A stretch of DNA of 20,156 nt, from positions 158,941-179,096 of the forward strand of contig JAHQJS010000001.1 of NCBI GenBank assembly GCA_019057385.1. Reading direction: 5' to 3'. The notes below the pieces were generated by a model. That model was not told the origin of the DNA, did no database searches, and saw only the letters and a program-made list of their open reading frames with translations. This DNA is from Candidatus Borrarchaeum weybense (GTDB taxonomy: Archaea > Asgardarchaeota > Sifarchaeia > Borrarchaeales > Borrarchaeaceae). Each line of letters opens with the position of its first letter. Positions within the stretch are counted from its first letter, which is position 1. The translations under genes were made by a program, and so were the position numbers. Shown here one piece after another: positions 1 through 15,626 of this stretch.

Positions 1-180
1 CTCTTCATACCAGGATAAATAATCATCAAGACACTTAATCTTTTTAGGAAGGAGTTCTTGGCAAGTGGTAAAGTATGGAGGATCAGTTACTATTAACTTG
101 ATGCTTTTATCTGGAATTTTAGGCATCAGGTCAATGGAATTTCCTTTGATAATTTTATTAGTAAACTTGTCTATATCCAT
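1..180 (-). CDS. DNA adenine/N4-cytosine methyltransferase (beta class), N-terminal part; runs off the window
   Basis: Manual translation from ATG at 180: MDIDKFTNKIIKGNSIDLMPKIPDKSIKLIVTDPPYFTTCQ...; has the 'I..G.S...M..IPD.SI.LIVTDPPY' motif IV signature of N6_N4_Mtase. Confidence 0.88.
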   Translation of the reverse strand, partial: MDIDKFTNKIIKGNSIDLMPKIPDKSIKLIVTDPPYFTTCQELLPKKIKCLDDYLSWYEE

Positions 181-328: not shown

Positions 329-1819
329 TTATACAATTGATACGCTGGAACTCTTATGGAAATCCCGAATGTACTCCATAGTTTCTTGCACAAGATTAAA
401 CCTAGGACCACGCCGTTCAATCACTCTTTCTTCCATTGAATTTTCTAAGACAAAGTCAACAACTAAACACTTCTTCGTTTGCCCCTTTCTACGAATCCTC
501 CCAATGCATTGCTTTCTCATCTTTGGTGAGGAAAATGGAGAGAAGAATATAACCACATCAGCGACATAGGCATCAAATCCTTCACTCGCAATTGTAGCTT
601 GTGATAAAAGAACCTTATCTTTTTTATCTTCAGAAAAACGAGTAATCTCTTCTTCTTTTCTTATGTCTCCCTGTCCTCCATAAACAGAACAGAAAGGAAT
701 TTTCGCTTTTCTAAGAGCCTTTTCAATTATTTCTCTTTCTTCAGTATACCAATAAAACAAAACTACTTTTGAAGCAGTATCTTCAAGAAAATCAAGGAGA
801 GCTTCGATCTTTGGATTTTTTGATAATCTAAGAACAGACTTATTCTCACCATAATAAATAAATCCGCTTGGTAGTTCTCGCAATGCATGAGCCTTAGCTT
901 TTATTTTACCACCAATTTTAACATTGGTTCCAGGAATTCTTAAAGGTTTGTTAGTTATGATATCTTCTTGAACTTGAAGGAATTGATCCGAAGGATGCAA
1001 ATACCTAACAATTTCGTTTACCTCAGGCAAATCAAAGCATTCCTCCATATCAAAACTAAGAGTAACATCAGAGATCCTATCCAGTATTTCTTCTTCGCAT
1101 CCTTCTTTGAGTATCCATTCAGGCCACTTTCTTCCGTACTTACTTCCCTGCATTATTTTATCAAAGTATTTGTAACGATAACTAAAGAAATTCGATCCAA
1201 GTGACTTTCCCAAGTCAATAGCTTTGAATATATTGAATAACTCTAGATAACTCTTATCAATAGGAGTTCCTGTTAAGCCAATAACATGATCGGCTCTTGC
1301 AGATATAGCACAACATAGAATAGATTGAAGAGCATCATAATTCTTACATTTATGTACTTCATCCAATACTAGTCCATCAAATCCATGAATGAATGAACTC
1401 TCTATCATTCTCCATCCAACTTTCTTAAATAGTTTCGCGTAGATGGTCTTCAATCCTTCAAAGTTAATCACAAACACATCCTTTTTCTTCTTGAGTAGTT
1501 TTTTCCTATCCCGGCCTCCTCCTATAAGAAACTCATAGGAAAAGTCTGTATGATATCTTAAGTCTCTTCGCCAGGAACTAAATGCTGAGGATGGGCATAC
1601 TACCAGAGTCTTCTGACAATCCCAGAGTTTGAGCGTATGCAAAGCAGTCAGAGTCTTTCCAGTTCCAACGTCATGGAAAAACGCTACTCGGTCACGCTTA
1701 GCAGCAAAAGCCAGAGAGACTAGTTGGTGCCACATGGGCTCAAGAGGAAAGTCTATATCTGAAAAGATATACTGTAGTTCCTCTTTTGTCAGAGATTTAT
1801 AATCAAGAGTATCTATCAT
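329..1819 (-). CDS. SNF2/DEAD-box superfamily 2 helicase
   Basis: Motif I DVGTGKT, Ia VVCP, II LDEVH, III LTGTP, C-terminal EGFD and QCIGRIRRKGQ (motif VI). Confidence 0.93.
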   Translation of the reverse strand: MIDTLDYKSLTKEELQYIFSDIDFPLEPMWHQLVSLAFAAKRDRVAFFHDVGTGKTLTALHTLKLWDCQKTLVVCPSSAFSSWRRDLRYHTDFSYEFLIGGGRDRKKLLKKKKDVFVINFEGLKTIYAKLFKKVGWRMIESSFIHGFDGLVLDEVHKCKNYDALQSILCCAISARADHVIGLTGTPIDKSYLELFNIFKAIDLGKSLGSNFFSYRYKYFDKIMQGSKYGRKWPEWILKEGCEEEILDRISDVTLSFDMEECFDLPEVNEIVRYLHPSDQFLQVQEDIITNKPLRIPGTNVKIGGKIKAKAHALRELPSGFIYYGENKSVLRLSKNPKIEALLDFLEDTASKVVLFYWYTEEREIIEKALRKAKIPFCSVYGGQGDIRKEEEITRFSEDKKDKVLLSQATIASEGFDAYVADVVIFFSPFSSPKMRKQCIGRIRRKGQTKKCLVVDFVLENSMEERVIERRGPRFNLVQETMEYIRDFHKSSSVSIV

Positions 1820-2743
1820 TTAATAATTTGAGGTGATAGTTAGATGGAAAGGATCAGAGCACTCATTTCTTCTATTCCATAAATAGGAATCTACTTGCTC
1901 ACAACTACAGTCCGCAAGATCCGCTATCTCCTTACAGGCTACTATAGTAGCGGCTCTAATTTCACATTCACCTGGACTGTTTTCAGGAAGGTGCAGATTA
2001 TTGTCCACCATATCAGCTAAGTTATGGGCATATCCAATACATCCCAACATTCTCAATATCTTCGGCACTTGATAATCTGCTGGAACAGGTACTTCCTTTA
2101 TCCCTTTATCAAATATTCCGATCCTTCTATGCATTTGCATGATAAACAAGAAGGTGCGCTTCAAGAACAAATCCCTTGAGAATCCCGGGAATGAAGTTAT
2201 AATGTAGTCAAGCCATTGATGAATATTATAATCCTCCCTTTGAACAGATATCTCAATCATGGATAATAGATCGAATTTCTTTAATATTTCTGTAAGATGT
2301 CTTATCCTTTGGTCTATCAAAGGAAAGCGTTCTCTACTTATTCGCTCACAAAAATCTCCAATAATTATTTCCAATTCATGATGCGGATGATACTGCGCCT
2401 TTTTCTTCAATTCCATTAGATAAAGAAAGCTCGCATCCAAGAGATCATACATCTTAGAAGAGTTTGCTCCAATAGGACGTATGGTATGTTTACCAAACCA
2501 ATAGCAGTAGTTAACTGAACTAGCTATGAGCTCATACAAAAATAATGTTTTAACTGCGTCTTTGCTCTTTGGATTAATACACTTTGGATACCAATTAGCA
2601 ATTTGATGTTTCTTCTTTTCCTTTATCCATTTTTTAACAGAGTGAGCCACAACATCAATGCCTGTATCACTAATAGATACAAACTCAGCATTGGCCACAA
2701 ATTCATGTGCTAAAGATAATGTATCTTCAATTATCTTACTCAT
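1820..2743 (-). CDS. qng1: queuosine 5'-phosphate N-glycosylase/hydrolase family (Qng1/DUF2419, Q-salvage)
   Basis: Family motifs in the correct order: SVNYCYW (LNFCFW), FLKR (FYKRAQ), PADYQVPKILR.LG.I.Y (ADY..P..L..LG...Y), ECEIRAATI, VDSYLW, PFHLTITSNY C-terminus (PYHRTRTIFY); GGAGGAG RBS. Confidence 0.85.
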   Translation of the reverse strand: MSKIIEDTLSLAHEFVANAEFVSISDTGIDVVAHSVKKWIKEKKKHQIANWYPKCINPKSKDAVKTLFLYELIASSVNYCYWFGKHTIRPIGANSSKMYDLLDASFLYLMELKKKAQYHPHHELEIIIGDFCERISRERFPLIDQRIRHLTEILKKFDLLSMIEISVQREDYNIHQWLDYIITSFPGFSRDLFLKRTFLFIMQMHRRIGIFDKGIKEVPVPADYQVPKILRMLGCIGYAHNLADMVDNNLHLPENSPGECEIRAATIVACKEIADLADCSCEQVDSYLWNRRNECSDPFHLTITSNY

Positions 2744-2758
2744 TAAACTCCTCCAAAC

Positions 2759-2841
2759 TACTCCCCAGTAATTTGAACCCGCACGTTCCTATCGAACAAA
2801 GAATTTTGAATCCTTCGCGTCTGCCATTCCACCACTTGGCC
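2759..2841 (-). pseudogene. tRNA-Leu(CAA) pseudogene, broken after the T-loop (probable chimera with the 3' end of another tRNA)
   Basis: GGCCAAG-TG-GTGGAATGGCAGACGC-G-AAGGA-TTCAAAA-TTCTT, long variable arm (GTTC/GAAC), GCGGG-TTCAAAT; then TACTGGGGAGTA instead of the expected CCCGC-CTTGGCC-A, so the T stem and acceptor stem cannot form. Confidence 0.8.
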
Positions 2842-2843
2842 AA

Positions 2844-2914
2844 GGTGACCAACGGGATTTGAACCCGTACTCGCAGGATCACAACCTACTGTGCTACCCT
2901 TACACCATGGCCAC
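2844..2914 (-). tRNA. tRNA-His(GTG)
   Basis: Full cloverleaf: GTGGCCA/TGGTCAC acceptor, GTGT/GCAC D stem, GTAGG-TTGTGAT-CCTGC anticodon arm, ACGGG-TTCAAAT-CCCGT T arm, C73 discriminator; no encoded CCA. Confidence 0.93.
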
Positions 2915-2916
2915 AA

Positions 2917-2988
2917 CGGGTCGCCAAGGATTCGAACCCTGAACAACGGATTTGGAATCCGTTATGATAACCATTTCACCAACGACCC
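2917..2988 (-). tRNA. tRNA-Trp(CCA)
   Basis: GGGTCGT/GCGACCC acceptor, GTGA/TCAT D stem, ACGGA-TTCCAAA-TCCGT anticodon arm, CAGGG-TTCGAAT-CCTTG T arm, G73; no encoded CCA. Confidence 0.92.
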
Positions 2989-2995
2989 AGTTATC

Positions 2996-3292
2996 CTATA
3001 CCTCCGGGTAATCCACCATAGATAGAATTTGATCTAACTCTTCTAAACTCGAGTTCCGCATCTGCATCCCACGAACTTTATTATACTCAGATAAAAACTT
3101 TTCAGCTTCGTTTCTATCATTCCACAATCCAAGCATATCCTCAGGCTTCTGAGTAATCATCCCAACAAAAATTTGAATTTTCCCATCTCTGTGGAGAAAC
3201 CAGCCCGAGGTAGAAGAATTCACCTCAACTTCACGTCTATCTACAATACAATAAAATCCCGGATGTTTTTTATACTCTTCAACTACAAACAT
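2996..3292 (-). CDS. hypothetical phage protein
   Basis: 98 aa ORF coupled to the upstream gene by a TAATG overlap, GGAGG RBS. Confidence 0.7.
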   Translation of the reverse strand: MFVVEEYKKHPGFYCIVDRREVEVNSSTSGWFLHRDGKIQIFVGMITQKPEDMLGLWNDRNEAEKFLSEYNKVRGMQMRNSSLEELDQILSMVDYPEV

Positions 3293-3990
3293 TAATCCTC
3301 CGAAATATCGAATTTTCTAAATTTTTCAGGATGTTCTTTATACTCCTTTTCCACCTCTTCAGCTCTTCCCACAATTTCTTTCAACTTTCCATCCCTCATT
3401 TCAGGAGTACCACAAAAACTAATCTCATCTAAAACAGCTGAAATCAGCTCGTATAAAGTAATATCTACATCTCCCTCAACATGCTTCTTATAATATGCCC
3501 TTCCTTGAGGAGGCGTGACCGTTTCCCCTAACTCAAAATGATTATTTATCTTAAGAGGTAAATCTTTTAGTTCATTCAATGGAGTAAATTCTACAGCATA
3601 AGAAGTAATGCCATGTTCATCCTTCTTACCAATTCCGTGAAAACCTAAAAATATATCAATTGAGTTGTTAAAATCCCAACGTTCTGCTCCTCTTGATACT
3701 TCTAAATATTCTATCTCTTCTTCCTCTTTCTTATTCTCAACAGACCTTTTCATATCATCTATATACAATTGCAAATCGTAGTGACCAAGTTGTGAATCAA
3801 AAAGCATATCAAAATATGTTTTCTCTTTCTCAATCCAGCGAAAAAGATCTCCTAATGTAAAATCATCACTGAGCGCAACCACGTTATTGAGATATGGAAT
3901 AAGATGAGGCACTTCCCATTCCTTATATCTTTCTTCGTCTGGCTCAAAATCATTCGTTCTTATAATTCTATCTTTTGTTAATTTGATCAT
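3292..3990 (-). CDS. hypothetical acidic phage protein
   Basis: 232 aa ORF in operon, no recognised motif. Confidence 0.8.
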   Translation of the reverse strand: MIKLTKDRIIRTNDFEPDEERYKEWEVPHLIPYLNNVVALSDDFTLGDLFRWIEKEKTYFDMLFDSQLGHYDLQLYIDDMKRSVENKKEEEEIEYLEVSRGAERWDFNNSIDIFLGFHGIGKKDEHGITSYAVEFTPLNELKDLPLKINNHFELGETVTPPQGRAYYKKHVEGDVDITLYELISAVLDEISFCGTPEMRDGKLKEIVGRAEEVEKEYKEHPEKFRKFDISED

Positions 3991-10765: not shown

Positions 10766-11622
10766 TATTCACCGCCTTTCAGGTCTTGCTCAATTCGCCT
10801 GACAATTTCGCTTCCTATTTCTGCGGCGAACATAGCTGATTTCTCCTTCAGCCGCTCTATCTCCTTCTTTGCCTCGGCAAGCTGCTGTTGGAGTTGCTCA
10901 TATTCTTGGGCTACTTTTATATCGCTTTCGTGCTCATTAGTTAGTTTTTCGGTTAATTGTTGCATATCCACAAGAGCCGCCTGTAATGCTTTTCTATCCG
11001 CCCCGGCCTGTGCGAGCCGGTCGCAAGCATAATCCTTAAAACCCTGTAACTTAAAGGAACATTCAGGACAAATCTTACAACATTCAAATAGCTCCGTTTC
11101 AATATCCCAATCCTTTAACTCGTCCTGTGGCTCTGGCTTGAGCAGGGCAAGGACTTCACGCATTTTCTTCCATCGAACCAGTTCTGCTTCTGCCGCTTCG
11201 AAGCGGTCGCAGAGTTCTTCCACTTTATTTAGATAGTCTGTCATATTGTAATACGGATGCTCGACATGACCTTCTCGGAATCTCAAATCATAATGGATAA
11301 ATTTATGTTGTTCTAAAAACTTTTTCACAAACTCACTTGCCTCTGGCTTGTCTGTGCAGTCGGAGCAGTCCCATTTGTTTCCCTCTCCTGTTATTGGGTT
11401 AGGTATTTCCTTCGTTCCCCCGCAAGTCCCGCAGGGCTTCTTATCTAAATGCCTTAAGTCGCTTGGCCCAATTATTATTCCTTTGCCTCGTAAATTGCTT
11501 TTGCAGGGCTTGAGCAGGGCTTCTAAATGCTTTAGTATTAAATCTCTATGTGGCTCTAAAGTGTCCCAGTAATGGTCTTTTGCCTTTTCCAGCAACTCTC
11601 GTATCTTTTCAGCGTCTTTCAT
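10765..11622 (-). CDS. mosaic hypothetical protein with CxxCxGx zinc-finger motif, internal duplication and C-terminal coiled coil
   Basis: CGTCGG...CSDC; repeated ALLKP, KPE and CDR motifs; ATG at 11622 with AGGAAGG upstream. Confidence 0.75.
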   Translation of the reverse strand: MKDAEKIRELLEKAKDHYWDTLEPHRDLILKHLEALLKPCKSNLRGKGIIIGPSDLRHLDKKPCGTCGGTKEIPNPITGEGNKWDCSDCTDKPEASEFVKKFLEQHKFIHYDLRFREGHVEHPYYNMTDYLNKVEELCDRFEAAEAELVRWKKMREVLALLKPEPQDELKDWDIETELFECCKICPECSFKLQGFKDYACDRLAQAGADRKALQAALVDMQQLTEKLTNEHESDIKVAQEYEQLQQQLAEAKKEIERLKEKSAMFAAEIGSEIVRRIEQDLKGGE

Positions 11623-12577: not shown

Positions 12578-12829
12578 TTATATGCAGCTTTCGCTCTCAA
12601 CTTTAACCTGCTCCCAATCTTCACGCATCTCAACAAACTTACCAAGCTTTTTTGCTTGAGCAGGAGTTTTAGCTGTTCTAATCTCCCATTGATCTTCGAG
12701 ATGTTTTACCTTAGCCGCTTGATAGGCATGCTCAACTGTAGGCCAACAAAATCCATTCCAGACAAAAGGAGAAGGATAAAAATTACTCAGAAATCCATAC
12801 TCATCTTTGAAGTAAGTTATTGACCTCAT
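12578..12829 (-). pseudogene. C-terminally truncated NADAR (YbiA/DUF1768) family gene
   Basis: FLSNFYPSPF...PTVEHAYQAAK...IRTAKTPAQAKKLGK...REDWEQVKV, then an abrupt stop; the C-terminal half (AKF.Q...L.E....D..WG) is absent in all three downstream frames. Confidence 0.8.
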
Positions 12830-13992: not shown

Positions 13993-14967
13993 TTATTTAA
14001 TCCGCACAATATCCTGCATACTAAGACCTGACTTTTCGTATGTCTCATCTTCTAATTCTTCCAAGAATCTCCAGCCATCTGTCCAATATCCAGCTGTAGG
14101 TTTCAACCCGGGCTGTAGCTTCATGAAGTATTCGTTCATGCGCTCTAATATCTTCTCTCTAATATACTTCGCCACCATTGAGGCTAAAGCCACTGGGAAA
14201 TATTTATTATCTGCTTTTACCTCGAATCGTATATCTAACTCTATTTTTCCTGAGGATAAAAAATATCTGGAGCATGTAGTCGATTCATCAGCTGGAAATT
14301 GAACGCCATCCAACTTCACATCGGGCAAAGTTTGTAATAAATCCCCATAAAACTTTCTACCTCCGAGCCTGTCAACATAAATTACTATTCTTTTCGCTGC
14401 ACAGAAAATAGCGATGGATAGGATTTGTTGAATCAGTTTGAGCACGGAAGAAGTAATCACCGAAGCTTTATTATCCGTGGTACTAACTATCCTATTAAAT
14501 TCTTCAGCATCTATACAAAGACATCGGAAATCCAGAAATTCAACTCCCTCTTGTTTCATATTCTCAGTTAGAGCTTCTGATACATCTTGACTTATCTCGG
14601 GAAGATAGTCTTTATATAAGGATGGATACCATGGATACTTCTCGGCTTGTTTTATGAGGTCGTTGGATATTATTGGGAGCAAGCTGGTAAATGTTGCTCT
14701 ATCCACACCAAGTTGATTGATAAAACCTTTTATAGTTCGCTCGAGATGGTTAGTTTTAGCATTTCGATTCCAAGCTTTTTTGCTATCTGTAACTAACAAC
14801 CTGCTACCAAGACCCTGCTTAAATTTGCCAACGCTATTTTGAAGTCGATACCATAAATCAAGATCCTCAGTATTTTCTCTAAGCAGAAAGATAGAAGAAG
14901 CCACAACTAGCGGGCCAAGGATTGGACCATATCCGGCCTCGTCAATTCCAGCTACAATTGTGAGCAT
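13993..14967 (-). CDS. rnhB: ribonuclease HII-family protein (long variant)
   Basis: AGIDEAGYGPILGPLVV, DSKK, VDRLGGR, KAD..YFPVALASMVAKYIRE, PTAGY; AAGGAG RBS. Confidence 0.88.
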   Translation of the reverse strand: MLTIVAGIDEAGYGPILGPLVVASSIFLLRENTEDLDLWYRLQNSVGKFKQGLGSRLLVTDSKKAWNRNAKTNHLERTIKGFINQLGVDRATFTSLLPIISNDLIKQAEKYPWYPSLYKDYLPEISQDVSEALTENMKQEGVEFLDFRCLCIDAEEFNRIVSTTDNKASVITSSVLKLIQQILSIAIFCAAKRIVIYVDRLGGRKFYGDLLQTLPDVKLDGVQFPADESTTCSRYFLSSGKIELDIRFEVKADNKYFPVALASMVAKYIREKILERMNEYFMKLQPGLKPTAGYWTDGWRFLEELEDETYEKSGLSMQDIVRIK

Positions 14968-14978
14968 TTGTTTCTCCT

Positions 14979-15626
14979 TTAAGAATTAAAATTTAACAAC
15001 TTTTCCGAGAGGCTTTCTAAGTCATCAAGTTCATGCTCCCAGATGATTAAAGTTTGGTATCCGTACTTGGCGAATAAATTTGTCCTTTTTTCTTCCTCCT
15101 CAGGTTCGTGCCAGTAATCTCCGTACAGCTCTATGATTTTCTTCTGTCCATTGACATTTACAAAATCAGGACACTTACCAGCAAGAATGAATTGTCCATT
15201 ACCTACATATTTCCATTCGTTTGGAAGAAGTTGATGAAGCAGCTTAGTTAGAAGTTTTTCCGATTTGTTTGGATAAACATTTCTGGCTAACATCTGCTTA
15301 GCAATAAAATCGGCGTCTTTCCATTGTTTTTTCTTAGCTTCGCTTATCTTGTCCCTTGATGATTTAGAATGATGCTTTCCAAGCATTCCTTTATGAGATT
15401 TACTCATTCTTTCACGGGTTTCTATAGAAACGACTTTTCCTTTATTTCCTTTACCTATTTTTTCTCGAGTTTTCTCGGTTCGCTTCTTTCCATAGTGAGG
15501 AGCATTTACACCTTTAGTTTCACCTCTCTTCGCTTTGCAATAACAACACCTACAATTTATCTTATGCGATATTTTCCGAGCTTTCCTCAACCGTTCCCGA
15601 GTTTCTTTAGTAGGTATCCAACCCAT
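14979..15626 (-). CDS. free-standing homing-type endonuclease: NUMOD3 DNA-binding repeats plus Vsr-like PD-(D/E)xK nuclease domain
   Basis: Repeats GKKRTEKTREKIG, GKVVSIETRERMS, GKHHSKSSRDKIS; C-terminal CPDFV...IIELYGDYWH...GYQTLIIWEHEL. Confidence 0.82.
   Translation of the reverse strand: MGWIPTKETRERLRKARKISHKINCRCCYCKAKRGETKGVNAPHYGKKRTEKTREKIGKGNKGKVVSIETRERMSKSHKGMLGKHHSKSSRDKISEAKKKQWKDADFIAKQMLARNVYPNKSEKLLTKLLHQLLPNEWKYVGNGQFILAGKCPDFVNVNGQKKIIELYGDYWHEPEEEEKRTNLFAKYGYQTLIIWEHELDDLESLSEKLLNFNS

Follow-up and report, generated by a model that had tools for sequence, protein, structure and literature searches.

A Qng1-family gene with intact catalytic residues on an uncultured myovirus scaffold that carries 7-deazaguanine genes

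The closest described relative of the gene examined here is Qng1/QNG1 (DUF2419, Pfam PF10343), the queuosine-5′-monophosphate N-glycosylase of Sphaerobacter thermophilus (StQng1) and human (C9orf64), for which the structures 7u07, 7uk3, 7u91 and 7ugk are in the PDB (PMC9881137). Queuine is also freed for salvage by QueK, the Clostridioides difficile queuosine nucleoside hydrolase (PMC9881137, PMC11130926), which differs from the Qng1-like protein in its unrelated fold and mechanism and in acting on the nucleoside, not the 5′-nucleotide. A second described system is the 7-deazaguanine modification of phage DNA, in which DpdA1-4 are found with FolE, QueD, QueE and QueC (Hutinet 2019, PMC6884629; Cui 2023, bioRxiv 10.1101/2023.04.13.536721). 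Here we describe a Qng1-like gene in a stretch of 20,156 nucleotides (the window) deposited with the assembly of Candidatus Borrarchaeum weybense (GCA_019057385.1, contig JAHQJS010000001.1, positions 158,941 to 179,096). The locus combines elements of both systems and differs from each. Qng1 accompanies a queuine-type TGT in an organism without queuosine (Q) synthesis, whereas the phage gene shares its scaffold with genes for making preQ0 de novo and for a DNA transglycosylase; the full gene set of the phage modification pathway is on the scaffold too, but PMC6884629 and bioRxiv 10.1101/2023.04.13.536721 name no glycosylase, salvage enzyme or DUF2419, and in the lineage described here the Qng1-like gene is optional.

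The open reading frame (ORF) begins with an ATG at 2743-2741 of the minus strand and stays open across 307 amino acids. The first-pass annotation had reported an intact ORF with six Qng1 motifs, and all six are present in the translation: NYCYW (residues 78-82), FLKR (193-196), PADYQVP (221-227), EIRAAT (261-266), DSYLW (285-289) and FHLTITSNY (299-307). The protein clears the 25-bit threshold of Pfam PF10343 (Q_salvage) with a score of 64.7 bits (E 1.3e-17, covering positions 8-269 of the 285 in the model; 62.6 bits on the genome), and a profile built from 50 homologs matches StQng1 with an E value of 1e-28, covering residues 10-320 of 323. Because of the Q_salvage match and the existence of metagenomic homologs (up to 62% identity, E 1e-121), this is no chance ORF. 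The AF2 model of the protein (pLDDT 94.5, pTM 0.92) was compared with the Qng1 structures. Foldseek gave TM-scores of 0.74 and 0.71, the former to StQng1, while VIA aligned 278 residues of the model (2-306) with StQng1 (7u07, chain residues 5-323) at Z 26.8 and a root-mean-square deviation of 2.9 Å, and gave Z 26.0 for human QNG1. The next-best fold is that of the archaeal 8-oxoguanine glycosylases (AGOG, Z 14), with helix-hairpin-helix (HhH) DNA glycosylases overall at Z 8-14. The membership of Qng1/DUF2419 read from the motifs in the first-pass annotation is thus borne out both by the profile search and by the structural overlay.

The active site of StQng1 has been defined in detail: D231 is the nucleophile, K199 orients the ribose, Y232 stacks on it, D298 and W302 hold the 7-deazaguanine, H316 is a further defined residue, and the carboxylate of the C-terminal Y323 contacts the ribose 3′-OH and so closes the site around the mononucleotide (PMC9881137). 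In the alignment K199, D231, Y232, D298, W302, H316 and Y323 correspond to K195, D223, Y224, D285, W289, H300 and Y307 of the phage protein. All 50 homologs have the same residue as the phage protein at K195, D223, Y224, D285, H300 and the C-terminal Y307. Among 247 full-length homologs, D223 is kept in 244, K195 and Y224 in 246 each and D285 in all; the position of W289 is W or F in 242, and an exact C-terminal tyrosine is present in 246. The protein therefore shares with Qng1 the full-length fold, the catalytic Asp and Lys, the ribose-stacking Tyr, the base-anchoring Asp, the Trp/Phe lid, the His-Glu network and the C-terminal Tyr, although it is only about 23% identical and falls in a branch of its own, which has been met in uncultured viruses alone. 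It is a member of the Qng1/DUF2419 family with its catalytic residues intact. The conserved catalytic set, together with the terminal tyrosine, speaks for an active enzyme that closes around one nucleotide, in the manner of Qng1, and not for a DNA glycosylase. We consider the Qng1-type family assignment and the nucleotide-glycosylase chemistry, the latter inferred from the fold, the catalytic residues and the terminal tyrosine, to be highly probable.

The terminal tyrosine also bears on the proposal that the substrate is a polymer, either because the protein is a DNA glycosylase that targets rival phages with 7-deazaguanine in their DNA or, as suggested at first pass, because it counters deazaguanine-based host defences (Dpd, Qat or type IV CBASS). 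Host defences do include HhH-fold glycosylases directed at phage DNA that contains 7-deazaguanine (bioRxiv 10.1101/2025.10.29.685425), both Qat and type IV CBASS make use of deazaguanine bases, and after Qng1 the best structural matches are to AGOG/Ogg DNA glycosylases. AGOG/Ogg and the anti-phage enzymes Dag1/Dag2 share the HhH core with the Qng1-like protein (Z 11-14), and the Dag enzymes likewise recognise 7-deazaguanine. However, unlike Qng1, these enzymes act on DNA duplexes and have neither the N-terminal extension nor the C-terminal Tyr plug. The nearly universal tyrosine of the Qng1-like branch matches the StQng1 carboxylate that closes the site and would leave no space for a polymer; the phage itself probably has 7-deazaguanine in its DNA, and the gene lies outside any defence or anti-defence island. 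A polymer-directed or conflict role is therefore very improbable indeed.

The residues that surround position 7 of the base appear from the sequence alignment to differ from those of StQng1. By alignment, Y93 of the queuine (cyclopentenediol) pocket is kept as Y99, while W94 is replaced by D, E, K or Q and W299 by T, G, S, D or N; the P46/W48/H53 loop aligns poorly and H53 is not kept, and an aromatic-Pro motif (F/W50, P53) is present in the Qng1-like branch. Of the phosphate contacts, K233 corresponds to Q225 (Q in 219 of the 247 full-length homologs), R80 to a non-basic residue and Q306 to K, N or H at position 293, where K/N293 is conserved along with the basic residues R89 and R292, which lie near the phosphate-contact positions in sequence. 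Given these differences in the alignment, the substrate may bear a different substituent there, and the preferred base may be a smaller preQ-type base rather than queuine.

The scaffold on which the gene lies (C1 hereafter) is 179,096 bases long and consists of nine pieces separated by 100-N gaps, the window being its entire last piece, in an assembly of 4.18 Mb; the DNA source is sediment metagenomes, of at least two studies. C1 encodes a tail sheath, a baseplate wedge, a major head protein, a portal and a protease, as well as a replication set comprising DnaB, a replication initiator, a family A polymerase, a RecA-type recombinase, a gp32-like protein and a clamp loader, and proteins of related phage-like contigs of 111-156 kb map in order over the N gap into the preceding piece of C1. 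Given these structural genes, the replication set and the synteny across the gap, C1 is a myovirus scaffold binned with an Asgard archaeon assembly and not host chromosome. The location in a phage proposed at first pass consequently holds, as opposed to a vertically inherited qng1 on a host chromosome. The tetranucleotide correlation of C1 with the other contigs is 0.91, compared with at least 0.98 for those contigs among themselves, and a comparison of C1 with the other contigs of the assembly gave no spacer-like or att-like match, the sole match being 86 nucleotides at 74% identity. The gene content resembles that of a bacteriophage, with replication genes of bacterial type, and a mis-binned phage is the more probable alternative to one that infects the archaeon.

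C1 carries the genes of the phage 7-deazaguanine pathway: FolE, QueD, a QueE-like radical SAM protein, a QueC fused to a phosphatase, a second QueC-like gene and a DpdA-like transglycosylase. QueF was not found on the scaffold, where only a sub-threshold cross-match inside FolE was seen. A DpdA-family transglycosylase and preQ0 synthesis genes thus occur together in one phage, whose DNA is probably 7-deazaguanine-modified. Of the three roles put forward in the first-pass annotation, it is the link to a DpdA-type DNA modification that gains support from this gene set, which includes the phrog_887 match. As a separate observation, the pairing of QueD with a phosphoribosyltransferase (C1 119638-121383) and that of QueC-HAD with the DpdA-like gene hint at steps on phosphorylated or nucleotide intermediates.

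The Qng1-like gene is also linked to this pathway by its position. In the closest relatives the lineage order of DnaB, c3, the Qng1-like gene, an SNF2 helicase, a methyltransferase and FolE is kept, FolE following the Qng1-like gene at a distance of two or three genes, and every SNF2-anchored locus that has the Qng1-like gene and downstream DNA has FolE. In an independent lineage (L071, 27% identity) the order is FolE-x-QueD-...-QueC-Qng1-like-helicase, the helicase being UvsW-type and the Qng1-like gene following QueC directly. More broadly, QueC-family matches are found in 10 of 29 viral carrier contigs, 8 of them at E≤1e-19, a count that covers carriers only, mostly fragments. The linkage among viral homologs that had been predicted at first pass therefore stands in part for deazaguanine genes, which lie close by in this lineage and in L071, but is not supported for tRNA genes, as described below. 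The L071 deazaguanine cluster is also interrupted by homing endonucleases, and in the window an RNase HII-like gene (324 amino acids) likewise adjoins a NUMOD3/DUF559 homing-endonuclease-like gene (13993-15626, minus strand).

Taken together, the explanation that we prefer is a Qng1-type enzyme that frees 7-deazaguanine bases from nucleotides by N-glycosidic cleavage and so gives them back to the pool of free bases; as a whole, we regard it as evenly balanced between being right and being wrong. The enzyme would be a monomer with an HhH glycosylase fold that binds one free 5′-mononucleotide bearing a 7-deazaguanine base, the carboxylate of the C-terminal tyrosine would enclose the bound nucleotide, and Asp223, aided by Lys195, would cut the N-glycosidic bond to yield the free base and (deoxy)ribose 5-phosphate. 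The phage would make preQ0 itself, and its DpdA-like DNA transglycosylase would use the free base. 7-Deazaguanine mononucleotides could come from the breakdown of modified DNA or of the host's Q-tRNA, and possibly through the phage phosphoribosyltransferase; the enzyme would return their bases to the free-base pool and keep the mononucleotides out of the nucleotide pool. We propose a recycler because DpdA-type enzymes use the free base, and an accessory one because some relatives lack the gene and two complete jumbo phages have it without a clear pathway. Accessory recycling of 7-deazaguanine bases as the physiological role is a tentative proposal, which we favour without calling it probable.

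Several observations weigh against the recycling proposal. Eight related FolE-positive loci are without the Qng1-like gene, and one has a 102-amino-acid remnant, so the gene is dispensable. Conversely, two jumbo-phage contigs, both complete (548 and 461 kb), include a homolog, yet neither gave a match to FolE, TGT or phrog_887, and their QueC-family matches are weak and partial (24 and 17.8 bits); in another lineage the Qng1-like gene lies beside ribonucleotide reductase. Since de novo preQ0 synthesis gives the free base directly, a nucleotide hydrolase is not obviously needed. The pocket differences (W94 to polar, W299 to small, K233 to Gln) come from the alignment only, and the hydrolase activity on 7-deazaguanine nucleotides is itself a prediction. 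The link of the Qng1-like gene to 7-deazaguanine is, in our judgement, real but partial.

In another reading the enzyme cleans the nucleotide pool: 7-deazaguanine (deoxy)nucleoside monophosphates would be destroyed before they are re-phosphorylated and incorporated at random into DNA and RNA, the base being a by-product, in the manner of DNPH1 acting on hydroxymethyl-dUMP. DNPH1/Rcl, MilB and BlsM have the nucleoside 2-deoxyribosyltransferase family fold and pyrimidine substrates, unlike Qng1. They are functional parallels in that they turn a modified nucleoside 5′-monophosphate into a base and a sugar phosphate (PMC9881137). In three synteny groups (DnaB/SNF2, ribonucleotide reductase/UvsX and UvsW/clamp/gp32) the gene is part of a module for DNA replication or nucleotide supply, the enclosed mononucleotide site and the terminal tyrosine are conserved, and such a role suits carriers without their own deazaguanine pathway. 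On the other hand, the harm of 7-deazaguanine nucleotides to these phages is an assumption and the Qng1-like gene is often lost; pool cleaning also overlaps the recycling that we prefer and is inseparable from it by sequence. As an explanation in its own right we consider it unlikely.

In a further reading, the virus-only branch would be a non-queuosine enzyme acting on preQ0-type (deoxy)nucleotides as an unrecognised arm of phage 7-deazaguanine DNA hypermodification. This might take one of two forms. Either a base-nucleotide-base cycle would be closed with the phage phosphoribosyltransferase and DpdA, or guanine would be exchanged for a 7-deazaguanine base on nucleotides, giving a route into DNA during replication. 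The latter, if true, would run counter to the prevailing opinion that 7-deazaguanines are introduced into phage DNA only after replication. That the branch is such an arm, in either form, is in our estimate an unlikely outcome too.

The exchange chemistry itself can be stated more narrowly, with a covalent Asp-ribosyl intermediate swapping the guanine of (d)GMP for a 7-deazaguanine base and the modified dNTPs entering DNA at replication. A retaining mechanism with a possible covalent intermediate has indeed been proposed for Qng1 (PMC9881137), the gene lies in replication and dNTP-supply modules, and the phosphoribosyltransferase and the QueC-HAD phosphatase fusion of the scaffold hint at nucleotide-level steps. 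However, no transglycosylation has been reported for Qng1, the known phage 7-deazaguanine modification has been argued in print to be post-replicative via DpdA, of which a DpdA-like gene is present here, and relatives dispense with the Qng1-like gene. We thus rate base exchange by this enzyme as very unlikely.

The first-pass annotation had built its headline on a Q-family tRNA, with the gene starting 16 nucleotides after an array that includes tRNA-His(GUG). The tRNA-His is indeed present, and its loop reads U33-G34-U35, but it ends 100 nucleotides ahead of the ATG as the last intact tRNA, and the third tRNA on which the 16-nucleotide spacing depends is a remnant. This truncated tRNA-Leu(CAA), which was recognised by a register-by-register comparison with the scaffold's intact tRNA-Leu(TAG), runs from the acceptor 5′ strand through the T-loop; its T-stem has lost the 3′ half and its acceptor stem the 3′ strand. 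It was not called by ARAGORN, relaxed settings included, or by Rfam at E≤10. The array therefore terminates in a cut tRNA where the Qng1-like gene begins. No promoter-like site was found on the minus strand between the array and the gene, and their co-transcription is plausible. The adjacency is local and not conserved: of 47 related loci, examined for 10 kb on either side, 39 have no tRNA at all and none has a His, Asp, Asn or Tyr (GUN) tRNA, so that the proposed linkage is not supported. The nearest relatives have no room for tRNAs there, since the Qng1-like gene directly adjoins the conserved gene upstream. Since relatives carry no tRNAs at that position, the block looks like a recent insertion, with its last tRNA cut. 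As an aside, the tRNA-His has a T at −1, and G-1 is therefore not encoded; a Thg1-type tRNA-His guanylyltransferase gene is found on the same scaffold next to an RNA ligase (C1 153567-154259; Pfam 90 bits, phrog_4717 E 5e-75), and the phage looks to carry both a tRNA-His and an enzyme of its own that adds or repairs G-1.

These data are central to the possibility of classical queuine salvage, in which queuine freed from the Q-5′-monophosphate of degraded host tRNA would provide Q for GUN tRNAs, including the phage tRNA-His and tRNA-Tyr. This is the sole activity demonstrated for the Qng1 family (PMC9881137). The gene does follow a tRNA-His(GUG) here, and homologs in a jumbo-phage group (L034, L037, L038, L039, L045 and L058, up to 548 kb) lie two or three genes from Ro60/TROVE-vWA, an AAA ATPase and an ankyrin-repeat protein, which is an RNA quality-control setting. 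However, the recycling of queuine for phage tRNAs, another of the roles suggested at first pass, finds no partner: Pfam TGT has no match on the scaffold or on the 29 viral carrier contigs, and all four TGT matches in the assembly are on other contigs. Most bacterial TGTs, moreover, take preQ1 and not queuine. The setting of cellular queuine salvage, with TGT present and FolE/QueDEC absent, is also the reverse of what is seen on the scaffold, which encodes FolE, QueD, QueE-like and QueC-like proteins and has no TGT match. Coupled with the absence of GUN tRNAs at related loci, the truncated end of the local array and the loss in the alignment of several residues of the StQng1 cyclopentenediol pocket, this makes queuine salvage rather improbable as the role of the phage enzyme.

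To place the branch, an exhaustive metagenomic search returned 1,008 cluster representatives at E≤1e-3, 148 of them at E<1e-30. In IMG/VR a Qng1-like homolog is encoded on 42 contigs, some of 223-548 kb, and the nearest ESM Atlas cluster is labelled mainly Uroviricota. The protein had no match in PHROGs, and none by megablast or tblastn among the 50,697 deposited phage genomes of INPHARED; the viral fold library BFVD contained no Qng1-like fold, its best match being EndoIII at E 0.23. Clade motifs searched against 185,579 species genomes matched in only three short contigs of metagenome-assembled genomes. No longer, fused forms of the protein were found, which is weak evidence. The divergent Qng1-like branch has so far been seen only in uncultured viruses. 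We found no prior description in the literature that pairs Qng1, DUF2419 or PF10343 with phage, in agreement with the first-pass statement that no characterised phage copy was known.

The coordinates of the gene and of the features discussed here are collected in the table. The Qng1-like gene and the SNF2 helicase directly downstream of it occur in the same order in five loci (L002, L005, L031-L033). The upstream neighbour, c3, adjoins the Qng1-like gene throughout the lineage and is retained in relatives that have lost it. Its AF2 model (pLDDT 88.6) had no PDB fold match by Foldseek or in a wide VIA search (best Z 3.6); an ESM Atlas hint at a restriction-endonuclease-like protein (score 0.88) was set aside, the confident model being without a PDB match. 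The N6/N4 DNA methyltransferase gene at the start of the window, which extends over the 100-N gap (C1 158338-158840), has paralogs on C1 at about 107-109 kb and about 137.6-138.3 kb. An ORF with a NADAR domain (window 12578-12829, minus strand) is 83 amino acids long compared with 177 in the related contig L002, and may have been truncated. On C1 131791-134469, the gene for the family A DNA polymerase encodes an N-terminal domain of the uracil-DNA-glycosylase superfamily (Pfam UDG, 80 bits).

Table. Features of the window and of scaffold C1, with the evidence for each
Feature	Position	Strand	Evidence
Qng1-like (Q_salvage family) predicted nucleotide N-glycosylase gene, 307 amino acids (P0001)	window 1820-2743	minus	Pfam, fold, residues
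GGAGGAG, Shine-Dalgarno-like, 4 nucleotides 5′ of the Qng1-like ATG	window 2748-2754	minus	read from sequence
Truncated tRNA-Leu(CAA) remnant	window 2771-2841	minus	comparison with intact tRNA-Leu(TAG)
tRNA-His(GUG), discriminator C73, G-1 not encoded (T at -1, base 2915)	window 2844-2914	minus	ARAGORN; Rfam 57.4 bits
tRNA-Trp(CCA)	window 2916-2989	minus	ARAGORN; Rfam 56.9 bits
SNF2-family helicase	window 329-1819	minus	Pfam SNF2-rel_dom and Helicase_C; phrog_62
c3, 232 amino acids	window 3292-3990	minus	no Pfam or PHROG match
N6/N4 DNA methyltransferase gene, 5′ end, interrupted by 100-N gap, then FolE	window 1-180	minus	tblastn with L002/L005 methyltransferase spans C1 158341-159108
FolE	C1 157739-158320		Pfam GTP_cyclohydroI, 209 bits
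QueE-like radical SAM	C1 150918-151808		phrog_2076
QueC fused to HAD/PNKP-like phosphatase	C1 136567-137580		Pfam QueC; phrog_1550
DpdA-like transglycosylase, adjoins QueC-HAD	C1 135546-136532		phrog_887, E 6e-40
QueD	C1 about 120238-120600		Pfam PTPS (PF01242), 102 bits
Phosphoribosyltransferase, adjoins QueD	C1 120811-121383		Pfam PF00156
Second QueC-like gene	C1 about 10995-11612		Pfam QueC matches

Collectively, our results place a sizeable Qng1-like branch with intact catalytic residues in large uncultured phages, more than once next to the genes for 7-deazaguanine modification of phage DNA, whereas Qng1 had been described as an enzyme with which eukaryotes and a few bacteria salvage a micronutrient. 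The published gene set of the phage 7-deazaguanine pathway contains no glycosylase. If the enzyme does handle 7-deazaguanine nucleotides, it would add a new step to a pathway whose DNA modification shields phages from restriction, whether that step is recycling, pool cleaning or exchange. The Qng1-like branch would, in addition, be a natural variant from which to learn what lets the Qng1 pocket discriminate between substituents at position 7.

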